A DNA stretch of 64,000 nucleotides from assembly GCA_964450805.1 (NCBI GenBank), contig CAYVDD010000001.1, positions 254,365-318,364 of the forward strand, written 5' to 3'. This DNA comes from an uncultured Candidatus Saccharibacteria bacterium. GTDB taxonomy: Bacteria; Patescibacteriota; Minisyncoccia; Minisyncoccales; JANBVM01. The notes under the pieces were generated by a model, which was not told the DNA's origin, searched no databases, and saw only the letters and a program-made list of their open reading frames with translations. Positions 22,171 to 58,732 of the stretch are shown piece after piece. Position numbers and translations under genes: made by a program. The first letter of the stretch is position 1. The number at the start of each line of letters is the position of its first letter.

Positions 22171-22385
22171 CAAAAATTTTACGAAACTAAAATAACTAAG
22201 ATGAATAATTTTTTAGCTAGATATTTTTTCCTTATTCAATTTTAGAGTTCTTTCTTACTCTTTCTAAACTTAAAAAACCGCCACAGAGCGGTTTTATCAA
22301 CACAAAGACACTTGTGCTTTTTTAACCGCTTCTTATTCTTATTAATTGTCTGTCTGATTTATAAAGCTTTCCCATACCCAGATTA

Positions 22386-22413
22386 ATTTTAGCAGAGTAA
22401 AAGTTGTTGTCAA
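22386..22413 (-). promoter_or_regulatory. Sigma70-like promoter for the 23S-5S unit (TTGACA-N16-TAAAAT)
   Basis: Minus-strand TTGACA (plus 22408-22413) and TAAAAT (plus 22386-22391), about 215 nt upstream of the 23S 5' end. Confidence 0.45.
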
Positions 22414-22474
22414 GAAAAACAAACATCCCAGATTCAAAAACAAACCTGAGATGCTTTTATATACTCAGAGAATT

Positions 22475-23158
22475 CTACTTTTCAGAGATTTTTTCTTTTA
22501 TATCAAGAATAAATTTAGCAGCAGCATCCTTACCACCTAAACCAAAAGCTAAGCCAAAAGATAAAGTAATCATTCCTACAAAGCCTTTAATCAAAGTATC
22601 GATAATAGTCGGAGTTACTCCTAATTGAAATAAAATTGCTAGGGCTGCAAAAATATAGATTGCCCATCTAATTGTCATTCCCAAAAACCCAGCGTAACCT
22701 ACTCCCATTTTTTTAACGCTGGCTTTCATAATCTTTTCCAAAATATCTGTTATAATAACAGTTACAACAAAAATAGCTGAAGCAACAATTAAATTAGGAA
22801 GCCAAGTAACAACTCTTTTTAAGAAATCAGCAAAATGAACAAATCCTAAAATTTCAACAGAAGCCAGTAAAAAGACAATGACTAAAATCCATTTAATAAT
22901 AGCCCCAATAAATTCAGATGGGTTTACTTTTAGTTCTGCTTTTTGCAAAGCTTCCTTCCAACCCACTCTTTCAAAGATTCTATTAAATCTTAGCTGTTTT
23001 AAAATTTCAGCTATTAACTTTCCTAAGCCAACTGCTAAAAACCAACCAATGATCAGAACAACAATCGCTCCAATTAATCTTGGTAAGAACATCAGGAATC
23101 CTTTCCAAGCGCTTTGTAAAGCCTCAAGTGTTATAATAGACCAGTCTTGTACTACCAT
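22475..23158 (-). CDS. Membrane protein with repeated conserved TM helices (MscS N-terminal-like / TM_helix repeat)
   Basis: Six hydrophobic helices with an amphipathic repeat pattern. No catalytic motif. Confidence 0.45.
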   Translation of the reverse strand: MVVQDWSIITLEALQSAWKGFLMFLPRLIGAIVVLIIGWFLAVGLGKLIAEILKQLRFNRIFERVGWKEALQKAELKVNPSEFIGAIIKWILVIVFLLASVEILGFVHFADFLKRVVTWLPNLIVASAIFVVTVIITDILEKIMKASVKKMGVGYAGFLGMTIRWAIYIFAALAILFQLGVTPTIIDTLIKGFVGMITLSFGLAFGLGGKDAAAKFILDIKEKISEK

Positions 23159-23287
23159 AGATAAGAAGTTTTTATTAATTAGACTACCGACCTTTTAAAA
23201 AGATATTGGTATATTATAGCATTATGTCAAAAAAGCTCCTGTGGAAAACTTTTTAGCTGATTTTTCATAAAAAAATATCAATTTTTA

Positions 23288-23315
23288 TTGACTTAAAACA
23301 TAAAAATTCTACAAT
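23288..23315 (+). promoter_or_regulatory. Sigma70-like promoter for the plus-strand CYTH gene (TTGACT-N16-TACAAT)
   Basis: TTGACT at 23288-23293 and TACAAT at 23310-23315, 20 nt upstream of the ATG. Confidence 0.4.
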
Positions 23316-23335
23316 AAAATCATTAAGTAATAATC

Positions 23336-23908
23336 ATGAAAAACATTGAGATAGAAATACAAGTTAATGTTGAAAACAGCAAACCACTCTTGGATTTTCT
23401 AAAAAATAATGCTCAATTTAAATCAGAAAAACAACAAACTGATGAATATTTTTCTCCAATTCATCGCAGTTTTGTTAAGGTCAGACCTGTGAAAGAATGG
23501 TTAAGATTAAGGAATTCAAAAGGTAGTTATTCAATAAACTACAAAAATTGGCACTATGATGAAAATAAAAAAAGCACTTATTGTGATGAATATGAAACTA
23601 AAATAGAAAACCTGGATAAGATTAAAAAAATCCTCAATATTCTTAATTTTAAACCACTTATTACAGTTAATAAGTTAAGAAAAACCTGGGTTTATAATAA
23701 CTATGAAATTAATATAGATTCAGTTAAAGATCTTGGTGATTTTGTAGAGATTGAATATATTGGAAAAGAACAAGTTGAACCAGTTAAAATTACAGAACAA
23801 ATGATAAATTTTCTGAAAAATATAGGCTGTGGAAAAATAAAAAGGAATTACCTGGGATATCCTTTCCAGCTTTTATTCCCAGATGAAATAAAATACGAAG
23901 AATTATAA
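23336..23908 (+). CDS. CYTH-domain protein (triphosphate tunnel metalloenzyme: CyaB / ThTPase / PPPase family)
   Basis: N-terminal 'IEIEIQV' (ExExK-like), 'LRLR' (RxR) and C-terminal 'LGDFVEIEYIG' acidic strand motif. Confidence 0.65.
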   Translation: MKNIEIEIQVNVENSKPLLDFLKNNAQFKSEKQQTDEYFSPIHRSFVKVRPVKEWLRLRNSKGSYSINYKNWHYDENKKSTYCDEYETKIENLDKIKKILNILNFKPLITVNKLRKTWVYNNYEINIDSVKDLGDFVEIEYIGKEQVEPVKITEQMINFLKNIGCGKIKRNYLGYPFQLLFPDEIKYEEL

Positions 23909-23974
23909 TTTTTAATAGGACAAAACAAAAAGATAAGACATAACTGTCCTATCTTTTAACTTCAGCTTTATTTC

Positions 23975-24361
23975 TTACAATCTTTTAACTAATTGCTCTG
24001 GAGATTGGATGATTTCTCTGAACAACACATTTCTGCAAACCTCATCATTATCAGCAGATAATGCATAAATTGGCTTGCCCATTGCAGCTGCGCATCCAAT
24101 TTCTAAAGTTGTACTGTTTCCAGAATAACCATTTTTATTATAAATAAAAACAACATCAGCCATTTTAATTTTGTAAAAATGATCATGAGTCAGCCCTAAA
24201 GCAGTAAAGTTCTTGTAATCGTCAGAAAGATTATTCCATTCATCCTGTCCAGAATGAAGATAAGGCTCATAAACAACAACACCTAAATCTTTCAGTTTTT
24301 TAGCAAATTCCCTTATTTCTGGTTTAAAACGGCGACTGCCGCAAATTACTACTGATTTCAT
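23975..24361 (-). CDS. Nucleoside 2-deoxyribosyltransferase-like (NDT/DNPH1-like Rossmannoid) small protein
   Basis: 'VVICGS', 'VVVYEP' and 'GYSGNSTTLEIGCAAAMGKPIYAL' resemble the NDT family 'sGTafEiGyAxAlGKPv'. Confidence 0.5.
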   Translation of the reverse strand: MKSVVICGSRRFKPEIREFAKKLKDLGVVVYEPYLHSGQDEWNNLSDDYKNFTALGLTHDHFYKIKMADVVFIYNKNGYSGNSTTLEIGCAAAMGKPIYALSADNDEVCRNVLFREIIQSPEQLVKRL

Positions 24362-24468
24362 ATTTTAATAGTATACTATGTCTTATTTAATAAATTAAGT
24401 GGACTTCGTAAGATTTAGTTGGAACCAGATCATACAGTAATTACTGGTTTGGGAGAAATTGAAACACA

Positions 24469-25014
24469 CTAGCTTTTATTAATAATATTCTGCATCATAT
24501 CTCCATATTTCTCATTAGTAATTTCAGCTTCTGGAGATATTTGCTCTAATAATTTTACACAATCTTCTCTAGCTTTATCTATTTTCTCTCTTGAACTTAC
24601 CACCTTCTCAATCTCTATAAAATCGCCTAATTGTTCTACCTGGTCTATTGCGATTTCAAAATCATTGTATTTATAAGCGTCTCTTGTTTTAGAAATAACG
24701 AATGCTTCGTTAAAGTCTAATTTCTCTAATAGCTCTATACCAAAATCTACATTATCTAGCTTAGCTTTTATTTCAAATCCCCCACCCTGCCTTACAATTT
24801 CTTTAAATTCCAAATTACAACTATCATTTATTTCTCTTATTCTTACAACCAACCCTCCTTTAATAATCTTATTTTCTTTATCTAAAAATTTAGGATGTCC
24901 GAAAATTCTATCTATTTGTTTTACATTTTTAATAAATTGAATCCCCATTTTATTCAAAGATTCTTTTATAGAACCGACATCCTTAATTTTTGCTCTTATT
25001 TCTACTTCAATCAT
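24469..25014 (-). CDS. CYTH-domain protein (second paralog)
   Basis: 'IEVEIRAKI' (ExExR/K), 'VVRIRE' and C-terminal 'LGDFIEIEKV'. Confidence 0.7.
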   Translation of the reverse strand: MIEVEIRAKIKDVGSIKESLNKMGIQFIKNVKQIDRIFGHPKFLDKENKIIKGGLVVRIREINDSCNLEFKEIVRQGGGFEIKAKLDNVDFGIELLEKLDFNEAFVISKTRDAYKYNDFEIAIDQVEQLGDFIEIEKVVSSREKIDKAREDCVKLLEQISPEAEITNEKYGDMMQNIINKS

Positions 25015-25071
25015 ATGCTTTATTTTATAAAAAATTTGTTCTTATGGTAATAATGTATATATGCTAATCTG

Positions 25072-25145
25072 TGGACCTGAGCGGACTCGAACCGCTGACC
25101 TCCACTATGCAAAAGTGGCGTTCTAGCCAACTGAACTACAGGCCC
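25072..25145 (-). tRNA. tRNA-Ala (anticodon TGC)
   Basis: Reverse complement GGGCCTGTAGTTCAGTTGGCTAGAACGCCACTTTTGCATAGTGGAGGTCAGCGGTTCGAGTCCGCTCAGGTCCA. The cloverleaf is consistent, with a G3:U70 pair. No encoded CCA. Confidence 0.85.
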
Positions 25146-25152
25146 TTATTAG

Positions 25153-25224
25153 TGGGCGCGGAAGGAGTCGAACCTTCCACCTCTTTTTTATCAGAAAAGC
25201 GTTCTACCGCTGAACTACGCGCCC
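25153..25224 (-). tRNA. tRNA-Ile (anticodon GAT)
   Basis: Reverse complement GGGCGCGTAGTTCAGCGGTAGAACGCTTTTCTGATAAAAAAGAGGTGGAAGGTTCGACTCCTTCCGCGCCCA. Anticodon loop CTGATAA. Confidence 0.85.
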
Positions 25225-25790
25225 AAAACCTCTAAAACAAATAACTTTTTTTTAACAGGATCAAATTTATAAGAAACATCTTTATCGAAAATCAAATTCA
25301 GGTTTAAAGTCTTAAAAATCTCCAGCCATTCTTCTTCTGTTTTAAAAACAGTCTTATTCTTATTACCAAAAAGCTTATCAAATGAAAAGCTGTGAATCTG
25401 GCAAGCTAATTTTGATAAAAATCCTTCAGGTAAATCTTCATAAATAAAGATTTTACCTCTTGAAACCCTTATTACTTCCTTTAAAAGGGCAACAAAGTCT
25501 TTGCTGTGATGCAATGTATAAGCTATTAAAATATTGTCAAAACTATTTTCAGGGAAAGGAAGCTTTTTTCCGTTAATCAAGCTGAATGCTATGGGAAATA
25601 TTCTTCGGTCAACAACATCCACACCAATAACCTCTGTTTCAAAAAAATTCTGAAAAGTATTAGCTATTATTGCAGAACCGCAACCAATATCAAGAATTCT
25701 GGATTTTTTAATAATAAATTGTTCACAGTCCAAACACATTTTATGGGCTACCTGTTCGTAAATTTTTTTAAAAACACGATAAAAGTTCAT
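25215..25790 (-). CDS. Class I SAM-dependent methyltransferase; its 3' end overlaps the tRNA-Ile 5' end
   Basis: Motif I 'ILDIGCGSA', an acidic residue after beta-2 ('IGVDVVD') and motif-IV-like 'LIAYTLHH'. The stop codon lies 7 nt inside the tRNA-Ile acceptor stem. Confidence 0.6.
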   Translation of the reverse strand: MNFYRVFKKIYEQVAHKMCLDCEQFIIKKSRILDIGCGSAIIANTFQNFFETEVIGVDVVDRRIFPIAFSLINGKKLPFPENSFDNILIAYTLHHSKDFVALLKEVIRVSRGKIFIYEDLPEGFLSKLACQIHSFSFDKLFGNKNKTVFKTEEEWLEIFKTLNLNLIFDKDVSYKFDPVKKKLFVLEVLGA

Positions 25791-25932
25791 AAATTATTTT
25801 CGCAAATTAATCATTCTTTTAGAACTGATTATAAGTAAATTTTAGATTAAATTTTACATCTTGACAAGAGAGCTATTTAATATATAAATAAATCAGTTCT
25901 TGAATGTAAAAGCAAAAAAAGAGGTTTTTTGA

Positions 25933-26508
25933 TTGGATTTAAATATAATCATATTTGATATAGAATGCACAACGTGGAAAGGAGCAAAATATAGAAATTG
26001 GTCTGGGGCAGGTGAACATCGAGAGGTTGTTCAGATCGCTGCTGTATTAATAGAAACAAAAGAATTCACAGAATTATCTGTTTTTCAATCTATAGTAAAA
26101 CCGAAAATAAACCCTGTTGTATCTGATTTTTTTATTAATCTTACAAATATTACTCAAGAAAGAGTAAATAAGGGTGTTAAATTCACGACGATGCTACAGA
26201 AATTTCATCAATGGTGCAAAGACTATCAAATCTATTCGTTTGATAGCCGAACAAACACTTCACAACTTTTTGACAGAGATGTCTTAAAAGAAAATTGTTC
26301 TCTCTTGAAAGTAGAATTTCCATTCGAAAATAATAGATTTCATAATATTAATAAAGTTTTTCTCGATAATGGGTTTAGGCTCCGACAAAGCGGAGCCACT
26401 CCAGAAGCATTTGGCATTAAAATTCCTGCTAGACCACATAACGCGTTGAATGATGTTCGAGGCTTAATAATTGGTCTCAAAGAGTTAAAGCGTCTTGGAA
26501 AAATATAA
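25933..26508 (+). CDS. DEDDh-family 3'-5' exonuclease (DnaQ/RNase T/Orn-like)
   Basis: Exo I 'IIFDIECTT', Exo II region and Exo III 'HNALNDV'. It has a TTG start, with GAGG 10 nt upstream. Confidence 0.7.
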   Translation: MDLNIIIFDIECTTWKGAKYRNWSGAGEHREVVQIAAVLIETKEFTELSVFQSIVKPKINPVVSDFFINLTNITQERVNKGVKFTTMLQKFHQWCKDYQIYSFDSRTNTSQLFDRDVLKENCSLLKVEFPFENNRFHNINKVFLDNGFRLRQSGATPEAFGIKIPARPHNALNDVRGLIIGLKELKRLGKI

Positions 26509-26552
26509 TAGATTTTGTCTGTAGTAAATACAGATTTTTTTTTTATTTTAAA

Positions 26553-26585
26553 CCCAAAACACGCCCGAATAGGCGTGTTTTTAGT
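26553..26585. terminator. Bidirectional rho-independent terminator between the exonuclease gene (+) and the 16S 3' flank (-)
   Basis: Hairpin aacacgccc-gaat-aggcgtgtt with T-runs on both sides. Confidence 0.5.
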
Positions 26586-26696
26586 TTTAGTTTCTTAGAG
26601 TTATCCCGACTAGTCGATCTTTTAGAAACTTCGACCAACTTCTCAAAAGTTAAAATCCAAATTTCAGATTTCAACTCTTATCAACCAATTTTAAAA

Positions 26697-28232
<1,536 letters not shown>

Positions 28233-28437
28233 TAAAAAATAGTCGGGATAACTCTAAAAAACTAATTATATTAATTATCAGGTCCTTACTATTAAGTTTT
28301 AATGTTCTTTCCTTTAAAGTAAAAAATCAGGAAGAGACATCCTGATCATTTCCGAAATCTTTAATTAATGATTCGCTTATTTACATCTTTTCTTTTTTTT
28401 CTTAGTCATTTCTTTATTTATTAGTCTCTTCAATTTT

Positions 28438-32947: not shown

Positions 32948-33694
32948 ATGGCATCAATAATTATTGAAATTAGAGCAGGAACAGGAGGGAAAGAAGCTGC
33001 GTTATTTGCAGCTGATTTATTTAAAATGTATTCCCGCTATGCTCAAAATCAAGGATGGAAACAAAAAACTCTTGATTCTCAACCTACAGAATTAAACGGT
33101 ATTAAGCAGGTTGTTTTTGAGCTGAAAAACAGCAATGTCTTTGAAAAAATGAAATACGAAGGTGGAGTTCACAGAGTACAGAGAATTCCTAAAACTGAAA
33201 AATCAGGAAGAATACATACTTCAACAGCTACAGTAGCAGTGTTTCCAAAACCAGAAAAAAATGAAATCAATATAAGGGCAGATGAACTGAAAATTGATCA
33301 TTATAGAGCTTCTGGTCCAGGTGGTCAGTATGTTAATAAACGCGAAACAGCAGTGAGAATTACTCACCTGCCAACTGGTATTGTTGTTACTTCTCAAACA
33401 GCAAGAGGACAGCTTCAAAACAAAGAAAATGCTTTAGCAATTCTTCAGGCCAAGATTTTAGAACATGAAGAATTAAAAAACATTGAAAAACTGACAAAAG
33501 AAAGAAGAGCCCAAATAAAATGGGCAAGAAGAGTTGATAAAATAAGAACATATAACTTTCCACAGGACAGAATTACTGATCACAGGATAAAAAAAAGCTG
33601 GCACAAACTTGACAGCATTATGGATGGAAAACTGGAATCCATAATTAAAGCTATGAAAAAATCAGAATCTAAAATTATTTCTCAAGCTCCTTAA
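32948..33694 (+). CDS. prfA: Peptide chain release factor 1 lacking N-terminal domain 1
   Basis: 'RVQRIPKTEKSGRIHTS' (PxT codon-recognition motif) and 'GPGGQYVNK' (GGQ). It starts at the position equivalent to E. coli RF1 residue ~110. In-frame stops upstream (L31 stop) exclude an extension. Confidence 0.75.
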   Translation: MASIIIEIRAGTGGKEAALFAADLFKMYSRYAQNQGWKQKTLDSQPTELNGIKQVVFELKNSNVFEKMKYEGGVHRVQRIPKTEKSGRIHTSTATVAVFPKPEKNEINIRADELKIDHYRASGPGGQYVNKRETAVRITHLPTGIVVTSQTARGQLQNKENALAILQAKILEHEELKNIEKLTKERRAQIKWARRVDKIRTYNFPQDRITDHRIKKSWHKLDSIMDGKLESIIKAMKKSESKIISQAP

Positions 33695-39917: not shown

Positions 39918-41831
39918 TTATTGTTTAATTATTTTTTTAACTTCTTTAACGCTTTCTGGATTGGCTAAAGTTGATAGATCGCCCAAAGGCTCTTTTGTGA
40001 ATAATCTTTTTAAAATCCTTCTCATTATTTTACCTGACCTTGTTTTAGGCAGATCACTAGCTAAATAAATCTTTTTAGGCAGAGCAATTGGCCCAATCTT
40101 TTCCCTGATTTCTAAAATTAGTTCTTTTTCTAATTTTACTGCTGAAACTTTACTTTTAGGAACAATAAAAGCAACAGGCAGTTCTCCTTTAATTTTATCA
40201 GGAATGCCAACAATAGCACATTCTGCAACATATTCATGTTTTGATAAAACATTTTCAAGTTCTCCGGTTGTAATCCTGTGGCCTGACACTTTAATTACAT
40301 CATCAACCCTTCCAACAATTCTAATCAAGCCATTTTTATCTTTATAAGCTGCATCTGAAGTAAAATAAATTTTATCCCCATATTCACTCCAATATGTTTT
40401 TTTATACTTCTCCGGGTTTTTATACACCATTCTTAGTAATCCTGGGGCAAAAGGAGGAAGTAAAACTAAATTTCCTTTTTTATTTGTTTTTACTGATTTC
40501 CCTTTATCATCTAAAATATCAAATTTAAATCCTGGAAAAGCAAGTCCTGTATAAGCTGGTTTAAAGGGACCTATACCGGGCAAAGAAGTAATTAAAATTC
40601 CTCCTGTTTCTGTCTGCCACCAGGTATCAACTAAAGGACACTTGTTTCTTCCAACCTCTCTAAAAAACCAATTCCAGGAATGCTCATCAATTGGCTCGCC
40701 CACTGAAGCAAGCAGCCTTAAGGTTTTGAATTTAGTTCTGGAAAGTTTATCGCACTGTTTTTTAAACATTCTCACTGCAGTGGGGGCAGTGTAAAAAATA
40801 GTCACACCATGTTTTTTAATGATATCTGCCCATCTATCAACATCTGGCCAATTAGGAGCGCCTTCAAACATCAGGAAAGTGGCTCCATTAAGCAGGGGCG
40901 AGTAAACTGTGTAAGTGTGTCCAGTAATCCAGCCAGCATCAGCTGTTGACCAGAAAATATCTTCATCATGTAAATCAAAAATCCATTTTCCAGTAATATA
41001 TGCCTGAACTGTATAACCACCGCAAATATGAACACAACCCTTAGGTTTACCAGTTGAACCACTGGTGTAGAGTATAAACTGAGTATCTTCACTGTTCATT
41101 CTCTCTGGACTGCACTCATCTTTTTCATTTTCAATCAATTCATGCCACCACAAATCCCTGTCTTTCTTAAAAGAAACCTTATTCTCAGCTCTTTTTACCA
41201 CTATTACTTTTTTTACTTTTGTATTTTTTAAAGATTTATCAGTATTTTTTTTCAAATCAATAATTTTTCCTCTTCTAAAATATCCATCAGCAGTGATTAA
41301 AATCTTAGCCTCAGTGTCCTGTAATCTAATATTTAAAGCAGTTGAAGAAAAAGCAGAAAAAACAACAGCATGGACTGCTCCAATCCTGGCGCAAGCTAAC
41401 ATTGCAATTACAACTTCAGGAATCATGGGCAGATAAATACCAATTCTATCCCCTTTTTTAACTCCTAATTTTTTTAAAGCATTAGCAAGCTTATTAACTT
41501 CTTTGTATAAATCATAATAAGTTAAGAATTTTGTTTCCTGGTCAATTGCTTCTGGCTCCCAAATCAAAGCAACCTTATTTTTCCTGGTTTCAAGGTTTTT
41601 ATCCAAAGCATTATATGTAATATTTAATTTCCCACCCTCAAACCACTTAAAATATGGAGCATGATGAGAAAATGTTTTTTTTGGTTCTTTAAACCAGTCA
41701 ATATCTTTAGCCAATTCTTCCCAGAATTTAACTGGGTCCTTATCAGCTTTTTTATAAATTGAACTATCATTAATCCAAGCCTTGTCTCTGAAAGTTTTGC
41801 TGGGATAATACAAGTTATCTTTTTTAATCAT
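39918..41831 (-). CDS. acs: Acetyl-CoA synthetase (AMP-forming). The start is set at the internal Met, because the track ORF's first 17 codons are a terminator hairpin.
   Basis: '[11 protein letters not shown]' AMP-binding motif. About 637 aa from '[14 protein letters not shown]'. The 41846-41869 hairpin plus U-run lies inside the longer ORF. Confidence 0.8.
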
Positions 41832-41844
41832 ATATTCTATTCTA

Positions 41845-41869
41845 CCAAAAAATCGCCTTGTGGGCGATT
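41845..41869 (-). terminator. Rho-independent terminator after gap
   Basis: Hairpin aatcgcc-ttgtg-ggcgatt, followed on the minus strand by U6. Confidence 0.45.
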
Positions 41870-41889
41870 CTTTTATTCTCAACTAATAA

Positions 41890-44451: not shown

Positions 44452-45210
44452 TTACATTGCCAAATACCCGCCGTCAACCACAACCACAGAACCTGTCATG
44501 TAGGAAGATTTATCAGAAGCCAAAAAAACAACTACATCTGAAACTTCTTCTGGGTTGCCCATTCTATGCATTGGAATTCTGGCTAATGTTCCTTCTAAAG
44601 CTTTAGGGTCTTGTTTAGTTGCTGCTGCCATAGGAGTATCAATAGCGCCTGGAGCAATAGCATTAACTCTAATATTAAAGGGAGACAGCTCTAAGGCCAT
44701 GGCTTCTGTCATCGCAGTTATTCCTCCTTTTGCAGCGCAATAATGAGTAATCTGAGAAAAACCAACACCAACCTGACCCATAGCTATTGAAGAAATATTA
44801 ACAATTACCCCTGATTTTTGTTTAGCCATCTCCTTAGCACAGGCCTGAGCGCATAAAAAATAACCTCTAAGATTAATAGTAAGCATCCTGTCCCAGTCTT
44901 CTTCAGTTAATTCCAAAAACGGCTTAAACTGCAAAATCCCGGCATTGTTAATTAAAATATCTATTTTTTTAAACTTGTTCAGCGTTTGTTTTACCATGTT
45001 TTCAATTTCTTGTTTTTTTGAAACATCACATTTTACTGCTATTGCTTCACCGCCAGAGTTCTTAATTTCATCAACCACTTTTTGACAATCTTCCAAAGAA
45101 ATATCAGAAACAACAACCTTAGCCCCTTCTTTAGCTAAAGCTAAGGCATGACTTCTTCCCATTCCCCTTCTTGCTCCTGTAATTATTGCTATTTTGTCTT
45201 TTAGCTGCAT
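44452..45210 (-). CDS. Short-chain dehydrogenase/reductase (FabG-like)
   Basis: 'IAIITGARRGMG' (TGxxxGxG), 'NNAG' and 'YCAAK' (YxxxK). Confidence 0.75.
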   Translation of the reverse strand: MQLKDKIAIITGARRGMGRSHALALAKEGAKVVVSDISLEDCQKVVDEIKNSGGEAIAVKCDVSKKQEIENMVKQTLNKFKKIDILINNAGILQFKPFLELTEEDWDRMLTINLRGYFLCAQACAKEMAKQKSGVIVNISSIAMGQVGVGFSQITHYCAAKGGITAMTEAMALELSPFNIRVNAIAPGAIDTPMAAATKQDPKALEGTLARIPMHRMGNPEEVSDVVVFLASDKSSYMTGSVVVVDGGYLAM

Positions 45211-50142: not shown

Positions 50143-51348
50143 TTATTTTACAAATTCTAATATTTTTGACATTAATTCAATTTGCTTGAAACGACCCAGA
50201 CTACCTTTCAGACAATTTTTCTCTGAAAACTTTATTTCAGACTTTTTAAACTTAACTGGTAATTTACATATTAAAACAGGAATCAATTCTTTGCAATGTC
50301 TTTTAATCTTGCTGCAAGTTGAATGGTCAGCTGTTACAACAATACTTATATCTTTAAGGCTTAATAAAGGTTTAATATTTTTGTCAATTTTTTCAATAAA
50401 TTTCTTTTTTCCCAAATAATTGCCGTCTTCTGATAAAATGTCTGCTGCTTTTATGTGACAGAAAATAAAATCATACTTTTTTAAATTTCTTTTAATACTA
50501 AGGACTTTCCCTTTTAGGTTTGTATCAATATTCCCGGTAGCCCCTTTAATATTAATCAAGTCCATTCCTAAAGCCTTAGCCACTCCCCTGTAAACATGAC
50601 CAGCAGCAATACAAGCTGCTTTAAGATTGTGCTTTTTATAAAAGCCAGGAGTTTCTTTAAATTTGCCTGCCCCTCTCACCAATAAATAATTAGCAGGCAA
50701 TAAACCCTGTTCTTTTCTTTTTTTATTTAAAGGATGATTTTCTAAAATCTGGTGAGCTCTTTCTAAAAACTTGTTTAAAACATCTGCTGTAAATTCAGCT
50801 TGTTTTGATTTTCCCAAAGCAATAATCTTTTTAACTTTTATACCTGTTTTTTTAATATCTCCTCCTCTAATTTTTTCAGAAAGATTCTTTCCCTTTAAAA
50901 GCAGAACTGCCCTATGCCCTAAAGAAGCAGTTATCTGAAACCTAATACCATTAATTTCTATACCAGCCAATGACTTAATTAAGGGTTCTGTATCAGCGAT
51001 TCTTCCAGCCCTCCTGTCAATAATTTTAAGATTTTTATTAACAGTACCTAAATTTGCTCTTAAAGCTACTTCTCCTTTTTTAATCTTTATTCCCTCGCCA
51101 AGTGCTTCATAAACTCCTCTGCCCAAATAATAAACTGCTGGATTATAACCAAGTAAAGCCAAATGAGCACTGTCTGAACGGGGATATTTTTGCCAGGAAA
51201 AATAAAAAGGTTTAATTAATCCGCAAACCCCACTTGAAGCTAAACAATCTAAATTAGGAGTGCTGGCAGCTCCAAGAGGAGTTTTTTTACCTAATTCTTT
51301 AATAGGGCTGTCTCCTAAGCCGTCAATAATAATTAAAGCAATTTTCAT
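50143..51348 (-). CDS. apgM: Cofactor-independent phosphoglycerate mutase, archaeal type (ApgM)
   Basis: N-terminal 'MKIALIIIDGLGD', about 400 aa, alkaline-phosphatase superfamily metal ligands. It is adjacent to eno. Confidence 0.7.
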   Translation of the reverse strand: MKIALIIIDGLGDSPIKELGKKTPLGAASTPNLDCLASSGVCGLIKPFYFSWQKYPRSDSAHLALLGYNPAVYYLGRGVYEALGEGIKIKKGEVALRANLGTVNKNLKIIDRRAGRIADTEPLIKSLAGIEINGIRFQITASLGHRAVLLLKGKNLSEKIRGGDIKKTGIKVKKIIALGKSKQAEFTADVLNKFLERAHQILENHPLNKKRKEQGLLPANYLLVRGAGKFKETPGFYKKHNLKAACIAAGHVYRGVAKALGMDLINIKGATGNIDTNLKGKVLSIKRNLKKYDFIFCHIKAADILSEDGNYLGKKKFIEKIDKNIKPLLSLKDISIVVTADHSTCSKIKRHCKELIPVLICKLPVKFKKSEIKFSEKNCLKGSLGRFKQIELMSKILEFVK

Positions 51349-52604
51349 TTTTCAAGTTCTTGTTCTATTTTTAATAATCTATTGTATTTTGCTATTCTTT
51401 CCTCCCCAACAGGAGCACCTGCCTTAATAAAATCAGCTTCAATACCCACAGCAAAATCAGCAATAAAATCATCGTTTGTTTCTCCTGACCTGTGAGAAAC
51501 TATAATTTTGAAATTAAAATCTTTTGCTAGCTTAGCTGCCTGAAGAGCTTCAGAAACTGTTCCAATTTGATTAATTTTCAAAATCATCCCATTAACAGCT
51601 TTTCTTTTTTTTGCTTCTTTTATCCTTTCTGAGTTTGTGACTAATAAATCATCTCCAATGATTAAAATTCTTTTACCAAGCTTTCTTTTAATTTCTTTAA
51701 ATCCTTGCCAGTCGTCTTCAGCAAAAGGGTCTTCTAATCCTGAAATTGGATATTTTGAAATTAAATCTGAATAATATCTTATTAAACCTTGTCTTGTAAA
51801 AATACCTGTATTTAATTCATATTTTCCATTTTTAAAAAATTGTGATGAAGCTATATCTAAAATAATCTTTATCTTGTTTTCATAACCCAGACTTTCTGAA
51901 GCCTTTAAAATAAAATTTATTGCCTGTTCTGGAATTGTGAAAGGAGGAGCAAATCCTCCTTCGTCTCCGACATTAATAGCCAGTTTTCCGTATTTTTTAG
52001 AAAGAAGTTTCTTTAACTGCTGATATATTTCAGAAATAATCTCCAGTTTTTTAGAAAAAGATGTTTCTTCTACAGCAACCATAAATTCCTGAACATCTAA
52101 TCCGCTTCCGGAATGAACTCCTCCATTAATAACATTAAACAAAGGATCCGGCAGTCTTGGTTTTTTAACTGATATTTTATATAATTTTTTTGCAATTTCA
52201 TTTATATATTTAAAAAGCTCTAATTTTTTAGAGCCTGCTCCAGCACGACATACTGCTAATGATACTCCGCAAATCGCATTAGCACCTAAACTGGATTTAT
52301 CTTTAGTTCCGTCAAGCTTAATCATTAAATCATCAATTTTTTTTTGTGAACCCGGGTCTCTGCCAACAATTTCAGGAGCAATAATTTTATTAATATTATC
52401 TACTGCTTTTAAAACACCTTTTCCTAAATATCTTTTTTTATTATCTCTTAATTCCTTTGCTTCGTATTTTCCAACTGAAGCGCCTGAAGGAATAGAAGAA
52501 ACAAAAACGCCTTTACTTGTTTCTATACTAACTTCAACAGTGGGATTTCCACGGGAATCCAAAATTTCCCTTGCTTTTACATCTCTGATTTTGGAGTTTT
52601 TCAT
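51345..52604 (-). CDS. eno: Enolase
   Basis: 'SHRSGETND' and a TIM-barrel domain with an N-terminal cap. Confidence 0.9.
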   Translation of the reverse strand: MKNSKIRDVKAREILDSRGNPTVEVSIETSKGVFVSSIPSGASVGKYEAKELRDNKKRYLGKGVLKAVDNINKIIAPEIVGRDPGSQKKIDDLMIKLDGTKDKSSLGANAICGVSLAVCRAGAGSKKLELFKYINEIAKKLYKISVKKPRLPDPLFNVINGGVHSGSGLDVQEFMVAVEETSFSKKLEIISEIYQQLKKLLSKKYGKLAINVGDEGGFAPPFTIPEQAINFILKASESLGYENKIKIILDIASSQFFKNGKYELNTGIFTRQGLIRYYSDLISKYPISGLEDPFAEDDWQGFKEIKRKLGKRILIIGDDLLVTNSERIKEAKKRKAVNGMILKINQIGTVSEALQAAKLAKDFNFKIIVSHRSGETNDDFIADFAVGIEADFIKAGAPVGEERIAKYNRLLKIEQELEK

Positions 52605-52659
52605 GTTTTTTAAAACAAAACTGGTATTAACTGTTCCAGTTTAATAATTGTGCAGGTTT

Positions 52660-53574
52660 TTATTGCCTTGTTAAATAATCAAAAACAGCTAAAGCTGCTT
52701 TTGCCCCTTCACCGCAGCTAATTATAATTTGTTTGAATTTTCCAGTATCAACATCACCAGCAGCAAAAAGGCCTGGTGTTTTTGTCTGAAAAGTATCAAA
52801 AGCAACCTTTATCTCTCCTTTTTTATTAAAATCAACCAAGTGATTAACAAATGAGGATGCAGGTTGAGAACCTATTTCAACAAAAACTCCTTTTACTGAT
52901 AAAGTTCTTTCTTCTTTATTTACTCTGTCTTGATAAATAATTGAATTAACAAATTCATCCCCTTTAATTTCTTTTAATTGAGCATTGGTTATTATTTCTA
53001 TTTTTTTAATTCGCCCTACTAAATCCTGATTTTCTCTATCAGCCCTAACTTTAGAATCATATTCTAAAATATATATTTTCTTTGCCCAATTTTTTAAAAA
53101 TAAAGCTGATTCAAAGCCAGAATTACCTCCTCCTATTATAGCCACCTCTTTGTCAGCAAATAATGGACCGTCACAAACAGCACAATAACTTACTCCTTTT
53201 CCTATAAATTCTTCTTCTCCAGGAAGCTTTAATGGCCTTGGATCAGTGCCTGTAGCAATAATAATGGTTTTTGATTCAAATTTCTCCTTATTATCAGTCC
53301 AAACTAAAAAAGAACTGTCTTTTTTGTCTACTCTTGTAACTTCATTCATTTTAATATCTATATCCTGCTTTTCTAAATGTTCTTCAAATCTACTAATCAG
53401 TTCAAGTCCTGAAATCTCTTTAAATCCAGGATAATTTCCAATAGGAACAGCTTTTTTGGCAATTTGTCCTCCAAAATTTTTTGTAATTAAGAGTGTATTT
53501 AGTTTTTGTCTAGCTGCATAAATACCGGATGTAATACCAGCCGGACCTCCACCAATTATAATTAAATCGTACAT
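52660..53574 (-). CDS. trxB: Thioredoxin reductase
   Basis: 'IIGGGPAG' FAD site, 'CAVCDG' redox-active disulfide and an NADPH site. Confidence 0.85.
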   Translation of the reverse strand: MYDLIIIGGGPAGITSGIYAARQKLNTLLITKNFGGQIAKKAVPIGNYPGFKEISGLELISRFEEHLEKQDIDIKMNEVTRVDKKDSSFLVWTDNKEKFESKTIIIATGTDPRPLKLPGEEEFIGKGVSYCAVCDGPLFADKEVAIIGGGNSGFESALFLKNWAKKIYILEYDSKVRADRENQDLVGRIKKIEIITNAQLKEIKGDEFVNSIIYQDRVNKEERTLSVKGVFVEIGSQPASSFVNHLVDFNKKGEIKVAFDTFQTKTPGLFAAGDVDTGKFKQIIISCGEGAKAALAVFDYLTRQ

Positions 53575-53584
53575 AGCCCAAATA

Positions 53585-55006
53585 TTAATCTTGAGATGTT
53601 TTTCTTCTTAAAAATGCAGGTCTTTCCCAAAGCTTTTCTTTAGAAACTATTTCAGCCTCTTCTTCTTCCATTTCTTTTTTAATCTGTAAAGCATTTTTTC
53701 TTATTTTTACATTTTCTTTTTGTTCAACAGGTTGAACTAAAGATAACGGGGTTTCTAAAACTCTTACTGATTTGGGAGACTTAATCTTTTTAATTTTAAC
53801 TTTTATTTTTTTTACCTTTTTTATTCTTTTCATTTTTACTTTTTCCTCTTTCCTTGCTTTAGATTCGGTTAAAACTTTAACTTTTTCTTTGCTCTTTTTA
53901 ATAAGACCTATTTCATTACAGCCAGTACCCAACAAAGTTATTTTAATTCTTGGATTTTTGCTTTCTCGAGAAACACCAAAAATAATTTTTGCTTCTTTAC
54001 TTGCCAGATTGGAAATGGTTTCAGCAATCTGATTAACCTGAAGCAAAGAAAGGTCTTTCTGGCCTGAGATATTGAATAAAACTCCTTTAGCTCCACTAAT
54101 ACCATAAGAATAAAGCGGGTAATTTATTATTTTATCAAGCGCATCTTTGTCATCATCTTTTGAAAGTTCCATTGAGTTTAGATAAGTTAACTTTCCCCTG
54201 CCATCAAAAATAGTTCTTAAATCAGCAAAATCAATATTAATTAATCCTGGCTTATATATTATCTTAATTAAACTCTGAATACTATTTGATAAGTTCCTGT
54301 TAATAGCTGATAAAGCTTTTTTAAGAGGTGCACTTCTATCAATGATCTGAAAGATTCTTTCATTGGGAATAATAGAAAAAGCATTTAATTCTGTACTCAA
54401 GCTTTCTAAAGATTTTCTGGCAGTTTCTATTTTTTTATCTCCTTCAAAATTAAAAGGTAGGGTAAAAATACCATAGGTTAAATTATTTAGACTTTTTGAT
54501 AGTTTTGCAAAAATTGGTGCTGCCCCAGAGCCCAGTCCTCCTCCCAAACAAGAAACTAAAATAATAAAATCCTGATCTTTTAATATTTCCTTAATCCTAT
54601 CTCTTTCGTATCTAGCAGCTTCTTCACCTATACTAGCATTCATGCCAGTACCCAATCCATAAGTTAAAGATTCACCAAACTGAAACTTTTTAACTTTTTT
54701 AGATAATGAACTTAAAGCTTTAATGTCTGTATTTGCTGCGTAAAAAGAAGCTCCTTTTATTTTTTGAGCAATTTCAGAAACTATAGAACCTCCGCCACCA
54801 CCGATACCAATCAGCCTGATTTTTATTTTTTTTATTGGTTTTCCATCCTCTTCAAACCCGGTTTTTCTAGGTCTTCCTCTTTTTCTAGGTCTTCCTCTTT
54901 TTCTAAGCATGCCTATTTTTTTTGGTCTTCCTCTTTTTCTAGGTCTTCCTCTTTTTCTTTTTAAGGTAGTTTTTTTACGCTTATTTATTTTTTTTCTTCT
55001 TGCCAT
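53585..55006 (-). CDS. ftsZ: Cell division GTPase FtsZ with an N-terminal AT-hook repeat extension
   Basis: 'GIGGGGGSIVSEIA', 'GGGLGSGAAPIFAKL' (tubulin signature) and the T7 loop. N-terminal 'RKRGRPRKRGRPKK...RKRGRPRKRGRPRK'. Confidence 0.85.
   Translation of the reverse strand: MARRKKINKRKKTTLKRKRGRPRKRGRPKKIGMLRKRGRPRKRGRPRKTGFEEDGKPIKKIKIRLIGIGGGGGSIVSEIAQKIKGASFYAANTDIKALSSLSKKVKKFQFGESLTYGLGTGMNASIGEEAARYERDRIKEILKDQDFIILVSCLGGGLGSGAAPIFAKLSKSLNNLTYGIFTLPFNFEGDKKIETARKSLESLSTELNAFSIIPNERIFQIIDRSAPLKKALSAINRNLSNSIQSLIKIIYKPGLINIDFADLRTIFDGRGKLTYLNSMELSKDDDKDALDKIINYPLYSYGISGAKGVLFNISGQKDLSLLQVNQIAETISNLASKEAKIIFGVSRESKNPRIKITLLGTGCNEIGLIKKSKEKVKVLTESKARKEEKVKMKRIKKVKKIKVKIKKIKSPKSVRVLETPLSLVQPVEQKENVKIRKNALQIKKEMEEEEAEIVSKEKLWERPAFLRRKTSQD
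54840..55000 (-). repeat. Tandem nucleotide repeats encoding four RGRPRK AT-hook motifs at the FtsZ N-terminus
   Basis: Plus-strand repeats of 'ggtcttcctctttttcta' (x4) between 54860 and 54960. Confidence 0.6.
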
Positions 55007-55205
55007 TGTTTAAGTATAAGATTTTCACTATAAATGGTCAAATTGATAATAATTATATCAAGTTTTAATAAAAATAAAAATAAAATGCTTTACGTTTTTG
55101 ATTTTTGGAATAAAAAAAAGACTTTTTTTTAGTAAAAAGTCATAAAGTCATTTACCGCTTGACAAAATCCTAAGGAAAAAGATATCCTAAAAACAAAATA
55201 TAAAA

Positions 55206-55382
55206 GTGAAGAAGCTGCTATCAGACGAACAAAGAAAAAAAGAAATAGAACATTTAAAAAAGGTGAGGGATATTATATTAGACTTATGCGTTTTAGAAGG
55301 GAAAGGGGGTAAAGGCGAATACCTAAAAATCCTAAACAATAAAATTGAGGAATTACAAAAGGGTTCTTGCGGTAAAATTTAA
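55206..55382 (+). CDS. Possible small protein (58 aa, GTG start) with its own promoter and terminator
   Basis: TTGACA at 55159. A GTG ORF 'VKKLLSDEQRKKEIEHLKKVRDIILDL...'. A hairpin plus T8 immediately downstream. Confidence 0.25.
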   Translation: MKKLLSDEQRKKEIEHLKKVRDIILDLCVLEGKGGKGEYLKILNNKIEELQKGSCGKI

Positions 55383-55386
55383 TTAA

Positions 55387-55420
55387 GCAGAAGGTTGTTT
55401 ATCTATCCTTCTTTTTTTTA
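55387..55420 (+). terminator. Rho-independent terminator
   Basis: Hairpin gaagg-ttgtttatctat-ccttc, followed by T9. Confidence 0.4.
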
Positions 55421-55510
55421 TGAGCTGATATTAGAATCTGTCTTATAAAATAAAAAAAAGCGGGTGGATATAACAACCGCACCGCCGATTATTCTATTCT
55501 AAAGAACTAT

Positions 55511-55717
55511 TTATTCATAATCATAAGATTCATTCCATATCTTTTTATTGTTTAAAAAAACGATTGCTTCTTTATGCGGATAGCCGTGCACTCCAATCTT
55601 ACCCTCTATGATAAGACTAAACTTATCATTTCTGTCTACTATATTTACCGCTAAATCATCTATATACTTTTTCATCCCAATAATTATTTTATTCAGAAAA
55701 TCTGTTTTTTTTACCAA
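55511..55717 (-). CDS. Hypothetical small protein (68 aa)
   Basis: ORF only. No motif. Confidence 0.25.
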   Translation of the reverse strand: MVKKTDFLNKIIIGMKKYIDDLAVNIVDRNDKFSLIIEGKIGVHGYPHKEAIVFLNNKKIWNESYDYE

Positions 55718-55743
55718 TTTTTATTTCACCTCTTTTTTTTATT

Positions 55744-55773
55744 AAAAATAAAAACCTCTTTTTGAAAAGAGGT
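55744..55773 (-). terminator. Rho-independent terminator downstream of tRNA-Gln
   Basis: Hairpin cctcttt-ttga-aaagagg, followed on the minus strand by U9. Confidence 0.4.
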
Positions 55774-55965
55774 TGGTCAAAAGATATTTTAAAACCGCAA
55801 AACCAACCCCTTAAAAAAAGGTTGTAGTTGTGGTAATGGTAATATCTTTAAGAAAATAACGTATATTCATAACTTGGCTCTTTTATATAAGACGATTTTT
55901 TTACTATTTTATTACACTTAATAACAATAAAAAAAGTATCTCGGTCTATATATTAAACTGGCTGT

Positions 55966-56035
55966 TGGAGAGCCAGGATTCGAACCTGGAATTTTCACGT
56001 CCAGAGCGTGACGTCTTACCATTCGACTACTCTCC
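55966..56035 (-). tRNA. tRNA-Gln (anticodon CTG)
   Basis: Reverse complement GGAGAGTAGTCGAATGGTAAGACGTCACGCTCTGGACGTGAAAATTCCAGGTTCGAATCCTGGCTCTCCA. The D-loop and T-arm resemble bacterial tRNA-Gln. Confidence 0.7.
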
Positions 56036-56039
56036 AATA

Positions 56040-56975: not shown

Positions 56976-57677
56976 TTAAAGTATGAATCTTCCTCTTTTT
57001 TCATCCCTTATAATTCTTCCTTTTTCCAAAGTAATTACTCTTTTTCCCAATTTATTAATGACTTCCCTGTCATGAGTAGACAAAACAACAGTAGTTCCCA
57101 TTTTATTTATTTTAAGCAAAAGTTCTATTATGTCTAAAGTATGATATGGGTCTAAATTTCCAGTTGGTTCATCCGCTAAAATAACTCCAGGCCTGTGAAT
57201 TAAGGCTCTGGCAATAGCTGCTCTCTGCCGTTCTCCTCCAGAAAGCTGGGCTGGAAAATTATTGGCCCTGTCTTTTAGGCCAACTATTTCTAAAATTATT
57301 GGTACAGCTTTTTTAATCTCTTTATCTGAAGCTCCAATCACTTCTAAAATATAGGATATATTTTCGTAAGTTGTTTTTGAAGGAAGCAATTTGTAATCCT
57401 GAAAAACTGCTCCTATTTTTCTTCTTAAATACGGTAAATCTTCTGGTTCTATTTTATGAACATCCTGCTCTTTAAAAAAAACTCTGCCTTTTGTCGGCTT
57501 TTCTTCAGCTAAAAGAAGTTTTAAAAGAGTTGTTTTGCCAGCCCCTGATTTTCCTACAATTGAAACAAAATCCTTTGGTTTTATTTCAAAAGAAACATCT
57601 GCCAAAGCTATTGTTGGTTTAAAGCCAGAAACATGACAAGGATAGATTTTTGTAATATTTTCAAACTTAATCATCAC
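56976..57677 (-). CDS. ftsE: Cell division ABC ATPase FtsE
   Basis: Walker A 'GKSGAGKTT', signature 'LSGGERQR' and Walker B 'ILADEPTGNLD'. Confidence 0.8.
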   Translation of the reverse strand: MMIKFENITKIYPCHVSGFKPTIALADVSFEIKPKDFVSIVGKSGAGKTTLLKLLLAEEKPTKGRVFFKEQDVHKIEPEDLPYLRRKIGAVFQDYKLLPSKTTYENISYILEVIGASDKEIKKAVPIILEIVGLKDRANNFPAQLSGGERQRAAIARALIHRPGVILADEPTGNLDPYHTLDIIELLLKINKMGTTVVLSTHDREVINKLGKRVITLEKGRIIRDEKRGRFIL

Positions 57678-58732
57678 CTTTTAAACGAATTTCTGCTTCA
57701 ATGAATTCATCTAAATCACCATTTAATACTTGTTCAATTTTAGCAGTTTCCTTTTCAGTTCTTAAATCCTTTACTAATTTATATGGATGAAGAACATAGC
57801 TTCTGATCTGATTTCCCCAGCTCGCAGATATCTTTTCTCCTTTAATTTTTGAAACCTTTTGTTTCTGGTTTTCTTTATAAAACTTGTGAAGTCGGGAATA
57901 AAGAAGCTCAGTTGCCTTTTTTTTATTACTAGCCTGAGATCTTTCTGATTGGCAGGCAGCAATAATTTTAGTTGGCAGGTGTGTAATTCTAACTGCTGTT
58001 TCACGTTTATTAACATACTGACCGCCTGGACCAGAAGCTCTGAAAACTTCAATTTTTAAATCTTCAGGCTTTACCTGTATATCTTCCAATTCTTCAATCT
58101 TAGGCATCACTTCAACCAAAGCAAAAGAAGTATGTCTTATTCCTTTGGCTGAAAAAGGAGAAATTCTGACCAATCTATGAACTCCACTTTCTTTTTTTAA
58201 AAAACCATAAGAAAACTTTCCCTTGATTTCTAAAGTAACTGATTTAGTTCCAATTCTTCCTTCAGGACCTCCAGCTTCAGCAAAAGATTGATTCAGGATT
58301 TTAGTTTTAAATTTTTTATTCTCGCAATATCTTTCATACATTCTAAGCAGCATTGTTGCCCAATCCTGGGCATCCTGACCTCCAGCTCCAGAATAGATTG
58401 ATAAAATTGCATTTCCTCTATCGTATTTCCCTAAAAAAAGAGTTTGAATTTCTTTTTCTTTTAATCTGCCTTCAATCTCTTTAATATCTTCTTCGTTTTT
58501 TAATTCCTCTATCTCTTTTTTTAACTTATCAAATTCAGCTAATTCTTGCGTTATTTGACTGGTTTTTTGGGTTATTTTTACTGCTTTTTCCTTATCCTGC
58601 CAGAGATTTGGGTCTTGAACCTGTTTCTCTAATTCTTTTAAATTCTTTCTTTTGTTTTCAATGTCAAAGCCAGTCCATCAATTGATGGAGTTTAATTTTT
58701 AAATCTTCAATTCTCTCGTTTAAGTTTTCCAT
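57667..58732 (-). CDS. prfB: Peptide chain release factor 2, made by a programmed +1 frameshift at CUU UGA C
   Basis: Frame-1 ORF 'MENLNERIEDLKIKLHQLMDWL' ends at TGA within 'CTT TGA C' (plus 58663-58669). The +1 frame continues '...GAGGQDAQDW...MLLRMYERY...SPF...GGQ'. Confidence 0.8.

Follow-up and report, generated by a model that had tools for sequence, protein, structure and literature searches.

Can an FtsZ carry its own link to the chromosome? Other proteins (SlmA, Noc, MipZ and PomXYZ, for example) normally keep it off the chromosome or position it relative to the chromosome, and to our knowledge no FtsZ is known that binds DNA itself. The question is raised by a gene found in a 64,000-nucleotide stretch of DNA (hereafter the window) from an uncultured Candidatus Saccharibacteria bacterium, a member of the Patescibacteria (assembly GCA_964450805.1, contig CAYVDD010000001.1, positions 254,365 to 318,364). 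This ftsZ gene occupies positions 53585-55006 of the reverse strand (-), on which all ftsZ features described below lie, and codes for a protein of 473 amino acids (plus stop codon) that begins with MARRKKINKRKKTTLKRKRGRPRKRGRPKKIGMLRKRGRPRKRGRPRKTGFEEDGKPIKKIKIRLIGIGGGGG. A preliminary description of the window had claimed that this FtsZ carries four motifs matching the AT-hook consensus at its N-terminus. The claim is borne out by the Pfam FtsZ domains, by four R-G-R-P cores and by the stretches matching the Pfam AT-hook model. The extension is a genuine translated tail of 60 residues, disordered and polycationic, in which canonical AT-hooks form two pairs (KRGRPRKRGRPKK and KRGRPRKRGRPRK) and which is a candidate for a built-in DNA-binding module.

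The identity of the protein that carries the tail is readily established. Pfam assigns residues 62-223 (54338-54823) to the Tubulin/FtsZ GTPase domain PF00091 (2.6e-30), which contains the motif GIGGGGG and a variant signature GGGLGSG, and residues 285-362 (53921-54154) to the FtsZ_C domain PF12327 (6.6e-13). The T7-loop motif NIDFAD is found at about residues 257-262, between the two Pfam domains. The top matches in a PDB search are all FtsZ, the best being B. subtilis FtsZ (9.5e-62), and 49 PDB FtsZ sequences align with E values from 1e-41 to 1e-62. An AlphaFold2 model based on an alignment of 66 homologs shows a confident core at residues 61-362, where the predicted local distance difference test (pLDDT) is mostly >90. 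Charge computation and the model define a disordered Lys-rich C-terminal linker at residues 363-432 (53711-53920). It is followed at residues 436-469 (53600-53701) by a helix with an acidic patch and by the C-terminal peptide (RKNALQIKKEMEEEEAEIVSKEKLWERPAFLRRK), an element conserved in the homolog alignment; the model places the helix at residues 439-461 with pLDDT about 88-90. The C-terminal peptide LWERPAFLRRK is kept in all relatives inspected. The presence of both domains, of the nucleotide-binding motifs (with the signature variant), of a disordered linker and of a conserved C-terminal peptide identifies the open reading frame (ORF) as a canonical FtsZ.

The tail stands out against this conventional background. 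Residue 62 of the window protein aligns with residue 13 of B. subtilis FtsZ, which makes the N-terminal tail ~49 residues longer than in the latter protein. Residues 1-60 (54827-55006; MARRKKINKRKKTTLKRKRGRPRKRGRPKKIGMLRKRGRPRKRGRPRKTGFEEDGKPIKK) include 16 Arg and 16 Lys (53% K+R) and carry a net charge of +29, while 12 of the 60 positions (20%) are Pro or Gly. In the AlphaFold2 model this segment has a pLDDT of 48-58 (about 50) and is devoid of secondary structure. Its description as a disordered polycationic extension is based on charge, the structure model, hydrophobic moment and the PDB alignment. The four R-G-R-P cores are found at residues 19-22, 25-28, 37-40 and 43-46, and their glycines G20, G26, G38 and G44 correspond to window positions 54949, 54931, 54895 and 54877, respectively. 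All are flanked by basic residues (KRGRPRK, KRGRPKK, KRGRPRK and KRGRPRK). They are arranged as two double AT-hooks, the first spanning K16-K30 (KRKRGRPRKRGRPKK; 54917-54961) and the second, proximal to the core and kept across the group of close relatives, spanning R35-K48 (RKRGRPRKRGRPRK; 54863-54904). The Pfam AT_hook model PF02178 (gathering score 17.4 bits) recognizes four stretches; the half-peptides with the first and second double hook score 17.6 and 20.6 bits, respectively, above the threshold, and the whole 62-residue tail scores 16.7 bits, just under it. This is a borderline pass, usual for a model of 13 positions.

Composition does not account for the motifs. Among 1,000,000 composition-preserving shuffles of the tail none had four RGRP and only 3 had three, so that the four RGRP are beyond chance. 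None of the window's other long ORFs (about 100 in all) has RGRP. Their sole GRP is in the sequence LGRPSM at 4677, without basic flanks, and [RK]GRP is restricted to FtsZ among the window's long ORFs and 205 long ORFs of related loci. The 60-residue tail gave no match in the PDB even at E up to 10. The N-terminal 79 residues, a short and low-complexity query, gave four insignificant matches (E >2) in a database of 5.8 billion sequences, and the exact window protein is absent from a collection of 15 billion proteins.

The tail is part of the protein only if translation starts at its first codon, and the signals upstream of ftsZ bear directly on this point. A sigma-70-type promoter is found at 55013-55041 on the reverse strand, with the hexamer TTGACC (55041-55036), a spacer of 17 nt and the hexamer TATACT (55018-55013). 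The block TTTGACC-N17-TATACT-N6-ATG is invariant in the 9 of 9 loci of the clade formed by the window FtsZ and its closest relatives (clade 1), while the sequence farther upstream and the upstream genes differ. With 6 nt between the end of the -10 element and the ATG, transcription is predicted to begin on the A of this codon or on an adjacent nucleotide, yielding a leaderless ftsZ mRNA. A -10-like hexamer that ends 5-8 nt before the start codon is present in 9 of 54 window genes versus 3.4% of random positions; the other genes with this geometry are found at 1698-2168, 2422-3054, 14428-15894, 18136-18990, 23975-24361, 24469-25014, 39918-41882 and 44452-45210. Shine-Dalgarno-like sequences precede 6 of the 54 genes. 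Leaderless mRNAs thus appear to be common in this genome.

The candidate alternative start, M33, was rejected on the grounds of its non-conservation and of the invariant placement of the promoter at M1. It is replaced by Ile in the relative P0002 and by another residue in P0006, and it is absent in the others, whereas the N-terminus M-A/R-R/K-R-K-K is conserved across hundreds of relatives. The start at 55006 (M1) can be considered secure. The preliminary description had envisaged a true start downstream of the repeats, and this is answered by the promoter found 6 nt upstream of M1 in nine loci together with the conserved N-terminus and the unconserved M33. Its remark that initiation at M33 would still leave two hooks is correct, there being no in-frame ATG, GTG or TTG between M33 and the GIGGGG motif. 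The absence of a Shine-Dalgarno context, to which it referred, is uninformative with such sequences present in only 6 of the 54 genes.

The hooks are encoded by a DNA repeat. Tandem Repeats Finder identifies 5.4 copies of an 18-nt unit (AGAAAAAGAGGAAGACCT on the coding strand) at 54862-54958, with 82% matches, and a higher-order period of 54 nt at 54861-54982. Near-identical 18-nt repeats had been announced at 54860-54960, coordinates that are right within 2 nt, but the series is not uniform. Its middle unit (54905-54922), defined by the repeat and by alignment with relatives, is degenerate and codes for KKIGML, the linker between the double hooks that holds M33; the equivalent segments are RKIGIL in P0002 and KKTTGL in P0006. 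Because this middle unit has decayed, the tail displays two double hooks, and its architecture is that of a duplicated 54-nt module in which each copy codes for a double hook and a short linker. The two double-hook copies (RKRGRPRKRGRP) share 11 of 12 codons versus 5.3 expected from window codon usage (P about 7e-4). Codon bias was ruled out as the source of such identity. Since codon usage cannot explain the shared codons, the DNA repeat of the window lineage is real and stems from recent duplication or gene conversion.

Alignment with related FtsZs, the check suggested in the preliminary description, shows that the extension is kept while the copy number of the hooks varies. The eight closest protein clusters are 70-83% identical to the window protein overall and 77-91% in the core, and all carry RGRP hooks; the cores of clade 1 are 76-97% identical to one another. 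There is 1 hook in P0001, 2 in P0005, P0007 and P0008, 3 in P0003 and P0004, and 4 in P0002, P0006 and the window protein. The window FtsZ with 4 hooks is sister to P0001 with a single one (91% core identity) and P0002 with 4 is sister to P0004 with 3 (90% identity). In five sequences with 93-97% identity, three of which belong to one 90%-identity cluster, the number is 2. Between species, hook number has changed repeatedly, by gain and loss of repeat units of 18 or 54 nt. The suggestion that the repeat-encoded tail may vary in length stands for comparisons between species, which differ by 1-4 hooks, but not within the 90%-identity cluster, where the number is constant; judged as a contingency locus, the hook number varies between species-level relatives at 90-91% core identity and is constant in the five sequences at 93-97%. 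A scan of GTDB species representatives added a single close relative, JAUUXB01 (metagenome-assembled genome CSMAG_54), identical to P0002; judged by the names of homologs, the organism falls among Patescibacteria of the Paceibacteria/Parcubacteria type. A different repeat operates at the other end of the protein: in P0385, P0384 and P0005, which belong to one 90%-identity cluster, the length of the C-terminal linker varies through (P/S/T)K dipeptide repeats, for example PKPKTKPKPKSKPKSKPKTKPKPKPKP, and does so even where the proteins are near-identical.

Beneath this variation in number, the motif itself is strictly preserved. Of the nine sequences, eight have the core-proximal RGRPxxRGRP unchanged and all nine have the last hook unchanged. 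At 6 of the 8 core hook codons they differ synonymously (AGA/AGG, GGA/GGG, CCT/CCC/CCA), and the only amino acid changes in the core-proximal pair are R/K swaps at flanking positions, whereas the rest of the tail varies. Because R-G-R-P remains exact while its synonymous codons differ, the hooks are selected as peptide, under purifying selection.

GRP is missing from more distant Patescibacteria FtsZs, although nearly all of them possess a Lys/Arg-rich N-tail. In a first search (52 sequences parsed) the median tail was 35 residues long, counted up to the I-K-I-R-V-I strand that precedes GxGGGG, with a median net charge of +11; in a second one (138 parsed representatives of 50%-identity clusters) it was 41 residues long, counted up to GxGGGG, with a median net charge of +10. 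Three proteins of this wider set (P0148, P0274 and P0275) form a second hook clade, clade 2, with 42% identity to the window FtsZ and 59-60% among its members. Each of them has five hooks at its extreme N-terminus, arranged 2+2+1 and followed by about 100 more Lys-rich residues. Their hooks are encoded by mixed Arg, Gly and Pro codons without a tandem repeat. Isolated single GRP motifs are found in P0161 and P0324. In neighbor-joining trees clade 1 was monophyletic in 100 of 100 bootstrap replicates and clade 2 in 100 of 100, while the two grouped together in 0 of 100, each being nested among hookless FtsZs. Because the clades never group and are nested in this manner, AT-hooks were gained at least twice in the FtsZ N-tail. 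The hooks are best described as a clade-specific refinement of a Lys/Arg-rich N-tail present in nearly all sampled Patescibacteria FtsZs.

A minority of hookless relatives has a tail of another type. An 18-residue segment with amphipathic-helix potential, like the FtsA membrane-targeting sequence, was detected in 11 of 316 N-tails (P0054, P0084, P0048, P0305 and others); an example is AKKFKKIAQRVAKKVEKI, with a hydrophobic moment of 0.64. The N-tail may serve different purposes in different lineages.

It is likely that the tail of the window FtsZ has a real function, because its hooks have two independent origins and because R-G-R-P is exactly conserved. Judged from the protein sequences, the balance tips slightly in favor of a tail that binds DNA through its AT-hooks; the tethering of FtsZ filaments to the nucleoid is a less certain proposition. 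The most likely function would be non-specific minor-groove binding to the AT-rich chromosome, by which FtsZ is tethered to the nucleoid. Each R-G-R-P core would insert into the minor groove of A/T tracts. The genome has 32.5% GC, and 36% of the window is made up of A/T runs of at least 5 nt, whose median spacing is 15 bp. Since such tracts are so abundant, binding would be multivalent and essentially non-specific, with FtsZ filaments forming a coat on the nucleoid. The C-terminal peptide would presumably attach the filaments to a membrane anchor, while the N-tail would point to the cytoplasm and the DNA, coupling filaments to nucleoid. Osawa and Erickson are said to have found in 2011 that the N- and C-termini of FtsZ leave opposite faces of the protofilament. 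FtsZ would in that case include its own nucleoid-binding module instead of relying on a separate factor of the Noc or SlmA type. DNA binding might promote ring assembly on the nucleoid, delay it as a built-in form of nucleoid occlusion, or move DNA away from the septum.

Several points weigh against this proposal. Hook number is labile, the closest relative (91% core identity) has one hook, and most Patescibacteria FtsZs have none; because the number is so labile and mostly zero, multi-hook DNA binding cannot be essential to FtsZ function in the group. The general Lys/Arg richness of the tail is in part compositional, since the window proteome is itself basic (median pI 9.4), and the basic FtsZ core is typical of the organism in this respect. 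The prediction of DNA binding builds on motif identity, purifying selection and convergence. AT-hooks can bind RNA too. The basic disordered extension at the N-terminus of mycobacterial FtsK did not bind DNA in electrophoretic mobility shift assays and bound phosphatidic acid and cardiolipin (PMC13277299).

A much wider proposal is tentative and rather unlikely. Direct chromosome binding might be a general and hitherto unrecognized property of Patescibacteria FtsZ, in which the near-universal Lys/Arg-rich tail, an H1-like DNA binder upgraded at least twice to AT-hooks, would couple the Z-ring to the nucleoid in ultra-small cells that have no DNA-free zone. It would replace site selection of the Min/Noc type or help to clear and segregate septal DNA.

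The alternative that survives best, although improbable, is that the tail acts as an electrostatic membrane anchor, binding anionic phospholipids (phosphatidylglycerol, cardiolipin, phosphatidic acid) as a direct tether or with a preference for curvature. There are precedents for lipid binding by N-terminal extensions in the mycobacterial FtsK mentioned above and in OdinFtsZ1 (PMC12583498), and by extensions of some Mycoplasma FtsZs (bioRxiv 10.1101/2023.08.29.555414). The absence of ftsA next to ftsZ in any locus examined and the amphipathic-helix potential found in 11 of 316 Patescibacteria FtsZ N-tails are also in its favor. The FtsZ precedents, however, use amphipathic helices. In the window tail the maximum hydrophobic moment is 0.25-0.31, compared to 0.61 in the FtsA membrane-targeting sequence, and the mean hydrophobicity is -0.38; an amphipathic helix was ruled out there by a moment of 0.25, by 20% Pro+Gly and by the lack of a predicted helix. 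Electrostatic binding to lipids would not require an exact R-G-R-P evolved twice, and the conserved LWERPAFLRRK already points to a conventional anchor partner. The N-terminus reportedly leaves the filament on the face opposite to the membrane-proximal C-terminus.

Less probable than a membrane anchor is a role of the tail in tuning self-assembly. It would neutralize or bridge acidic surfaces, such as the conserved EMEEEEAEIVSKE helix of neighboring subunits, leading to bundling or to condensates without nucleic acid. Speaking for such a role are the +29 charge of the tail and the acidic, conserved helix that residues 439-461 form in this FtsZ. Basic C-terminal variable regions promote lateral FtsZ interactions in B. 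subtilis, and sequence features of the disordered linker reportedly affect FtsZ assembly. Yet simple charge would be enough for this purpose, while GRP is kept exactly amid synonymous variation and evolved twice. The FtsZ core is itself basic (net +11, pI 9.5), which leaves little acidic surface besides the one helix.

The binding of RNA or of another polyanion (rRNA, mRNA, polyphosphate) in place of chromosomal DNA is a markedly weaker possibility. Binding to RNA has been reported for AT-hook peptides, extended ones included, and a tail that is long, flexible and extremely basic would be compatible with it. The window motifs are nonetheless short canonical RGRP with K/R on either side, like those of HMGA and CarD, and reach the PF02178 threshold; A/T tracts occur every ~15 bp in the genome, and nothing was found that points specifically to RNA.

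Slightly less credible again is a neutral low-complexity tail, generated by slippage in a purine-rich repeat and by the Lys/Arg-rich composition of an AT-rich genome. The near-identity of the window copies in DNA (11 of 12 codons) is what recent slippage or gene conversion predicts, and a labile number of hooks (1-4), a basic proteome and a C-terminal linker that varies through PK repeats are features of the same kind. The relatives and clade 2, however, keep the peptide with different synonymous codons, in clade 2 without any DNA repeat; the R-G-R-P codons contain G/C, which AT bias does not favor; and four RGRP appeared in 0 of 1,000,000 shuffles, for a motif that arose twice and only in FtsZ. 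A mis-called start, with translation from M33 or later and some or all hooks outside the protein, is the remotest of the alternatives, for which there is an in-frame ATG at codon 33 and no Shine-Dalgarno sequence before M1, but it meets the unconserved M33 (Ile in P0002, replaced in P0006, absent elsewhere), a promoter that in nine loci would have transcription begin on the first ATG or directly beside it, an N-terminus kept in hundreds of relatives, the rarity of Shine-Dalgarno sequences in this genome (6 of 54) and the two hooks that a start at M33 would leave.

Two features of the FtsZ outside its tail are also unusual. The tubulin signature at residues 155-161 (54520-54540, reverse strand) reads GGGLGSG versus the usual GGGTG(S/T)G, with Leu for Thr at position 4. 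Among 120 Patescibacteria homologs this position is V in 32, L in 27, T in 22, A in 12 and I in 4. In E. coli FtsZ, replacement of the signature Thr impairs GTP binding and hydrolysis, and the nucleotide chemistry of Patescibacteria FtsZs with a non-Thr signature may differ from that of usual FtsZ. The confidently predicted helix with the acidic patch (RKNALQIKKEMEEEEAEIVSKEKLWE) directly precedes the C-terminal peptide and is nearly invariant class-wide, giving a conserved element longer than the usual C-terminal peptide of FtsZ.

The window codes for several division proteins: it has an ftsQ-like gene, mreC, a PBP2-type gene, divIC, ftsEX and murJ. No Min, ParA/ParB/Noc, SlmA or FtsA domain was detected among the 51 ORFs of at least 110 codons scanned in these 64 kb, which are part of the genome. 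Both hook clades keep ftsZ - thioredoxin reductase-like - enolase - phosphoglycerate mutase in that order (loci L001, L002, L004, L006, L015, L016 and L017, and window positions 50143-55006). In the same loci ftsA is never adjacent to ftsZ, and the genes upstream of ftsZ vary. The gap between ftsZ and the tRNA gene at 55965-56036 is unusually long (55007-55964, about 960 nt) and has only small ORFs of 50-68 codons; the gap between FtsX and ftsZ in L001 is 240 nt. The 68-codon ORF at 55511-55717, upstream of ftsZ, was considered as a counterpart of the 68-codon gene of L016 and rejected, their products being different small proteins.

Other features of the window are unrelated to division. A single ORF of 491 codons at 6917-8392 (+) has domains of three kinds (LexA DNA-binding, Peptidase_S24 autocleavage and N6/N4 DNA methyltransferase), an unusual LexA-methylase fusion. 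The rRNA genes are split within 19050-28235 (-), where the 5S (19050-19159) and 23S (19208-22169) genes are apart from the 16S gene (26695-28235) by about 4.5 kb with protein-coding genes and two tRNAs. Two release-factor ORFs, at 57667-58353 (-) and 32948-33694 (+), begin only at positions 121 and 101, respectively, of the PCRF profile, well within it. This points to starts that were miscalled or to a programmed frameshift like that of prfB.

FtsZ and AT-hooks are each known, but no description appears to exist of their fusion, of its convergent origin or of the basic N-tail shared across the class. A full-text literature search combining FtsZ and AT-hook returned no paper on an AT-hook in FtsZ, searches on FtsZ N-terminal extensions and DNA binding returned other kinds of extension only, and a search on septum placement and DNA clearance in Patescibacteria returned nothing relevant. 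If the tail binds DNA, it would provide a minimal built-in link between division ring and nucleoid in organisms whose cells are tiny and whose genomes are reduced, and it would extend the very short list of AT-hooks known from bacteria, to which CarD belongs. The FtsZs with 0, 1, 2, 3, 4 and 5 hooks are a natural allelic series, and a peptide of 60 residues makes the question directly testable.

Among known systems, SlmA of E. coli, which has a TetR fold, and Noc of B. subtilis, a ParB-like CTPase, resemble the tail in the predicted outcome: like them, the tail would link chromosomal DNA to FtsZ or the division machinery and render the Z-ring sensitive to the position of DNA. They are, however, separate sequence-specific proteins, whereas the window element is within FtsZ, is unfolded and would bind non-specifically. 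Pfam detects no ParB/HTH or TetR DNA-binding domain in the window FtsZ, which would be at most a functional analogue of Noc or SlmA.

As an N-terminal extension the tail is comparable to the additions that precede the GTPase core in Anabaena, OdinFtsZ1, Mycoplasma and Atribacter laminatus FtsZs, which are likewise restricted to clades. Those that were tested alter polymerization or localization (PMC6175996 for the Anabaena N-terminal peptide; PMC12583498; bioRxiv 10.1101/2023.08.29.555414; PMC7736352). None is reported to have AT-hooks or to bind DNA, the tested ones being membrane amphipathic helices or polymerization peptides, while the window tail is Pro/Gly-rich, non-helical and has a charge of +29. 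The extension of mycobacterial FtsK is similar in being long, positive, disordered and lineage-specific, and in belonging to a division protein from a group without canonical spatial regulators, but differs in its binding to phosphatidic acid and cardiolipin without DNA binding in mobility shift assays; the accessible part of that report makes no mention of an AT-hook (PMC13277299).

The motifs themselves are those of AT-hook proteins such as HMGA1/2 and CarD, with R-G-R-P flanked by K/R, several copies, a disordered setting and a PF02178 match at threshold. Membership of the HMGA family, whose proteins have ~100 residues, three AT-hooks, an acidic C-terminal tail and no other domain, does not extend to the 473-residue FtsZ, which shares only the motif. 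The window hooks, whose DNA binding is predicted, are paired only 6 residues apart, closer than those of HMGA, and are found at the N-terminus of a cytoskeletal GTPase and not in a protein of chromatin or transcription. M. xanthus CarD provides a bacterial parallel: its four RGRP hooks, by which it binds DNA, belong to an unfolded domain that is joined to a folded one with an unrelated function (PMC4374960). The hookless Patescibacteria FtsZs have in turn N-tails (MAKKxKK..., median net charge +10 to +11) that resemble the H1-like Lys-rich tails of CarD orthologues, from which they differ in being part of FtsZ and in the putative character of their DNA binding. To judge from the title of the study by Garcia-Heras et al. 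in 2009, a histone H1-like domain is reportedly functionally equivalent in CarD. The alternation between hooks and Lys-rich tails in FtsZ would then mirror that between HMGA-like and H1-like domains in CarD, an equivalence taken from that title.

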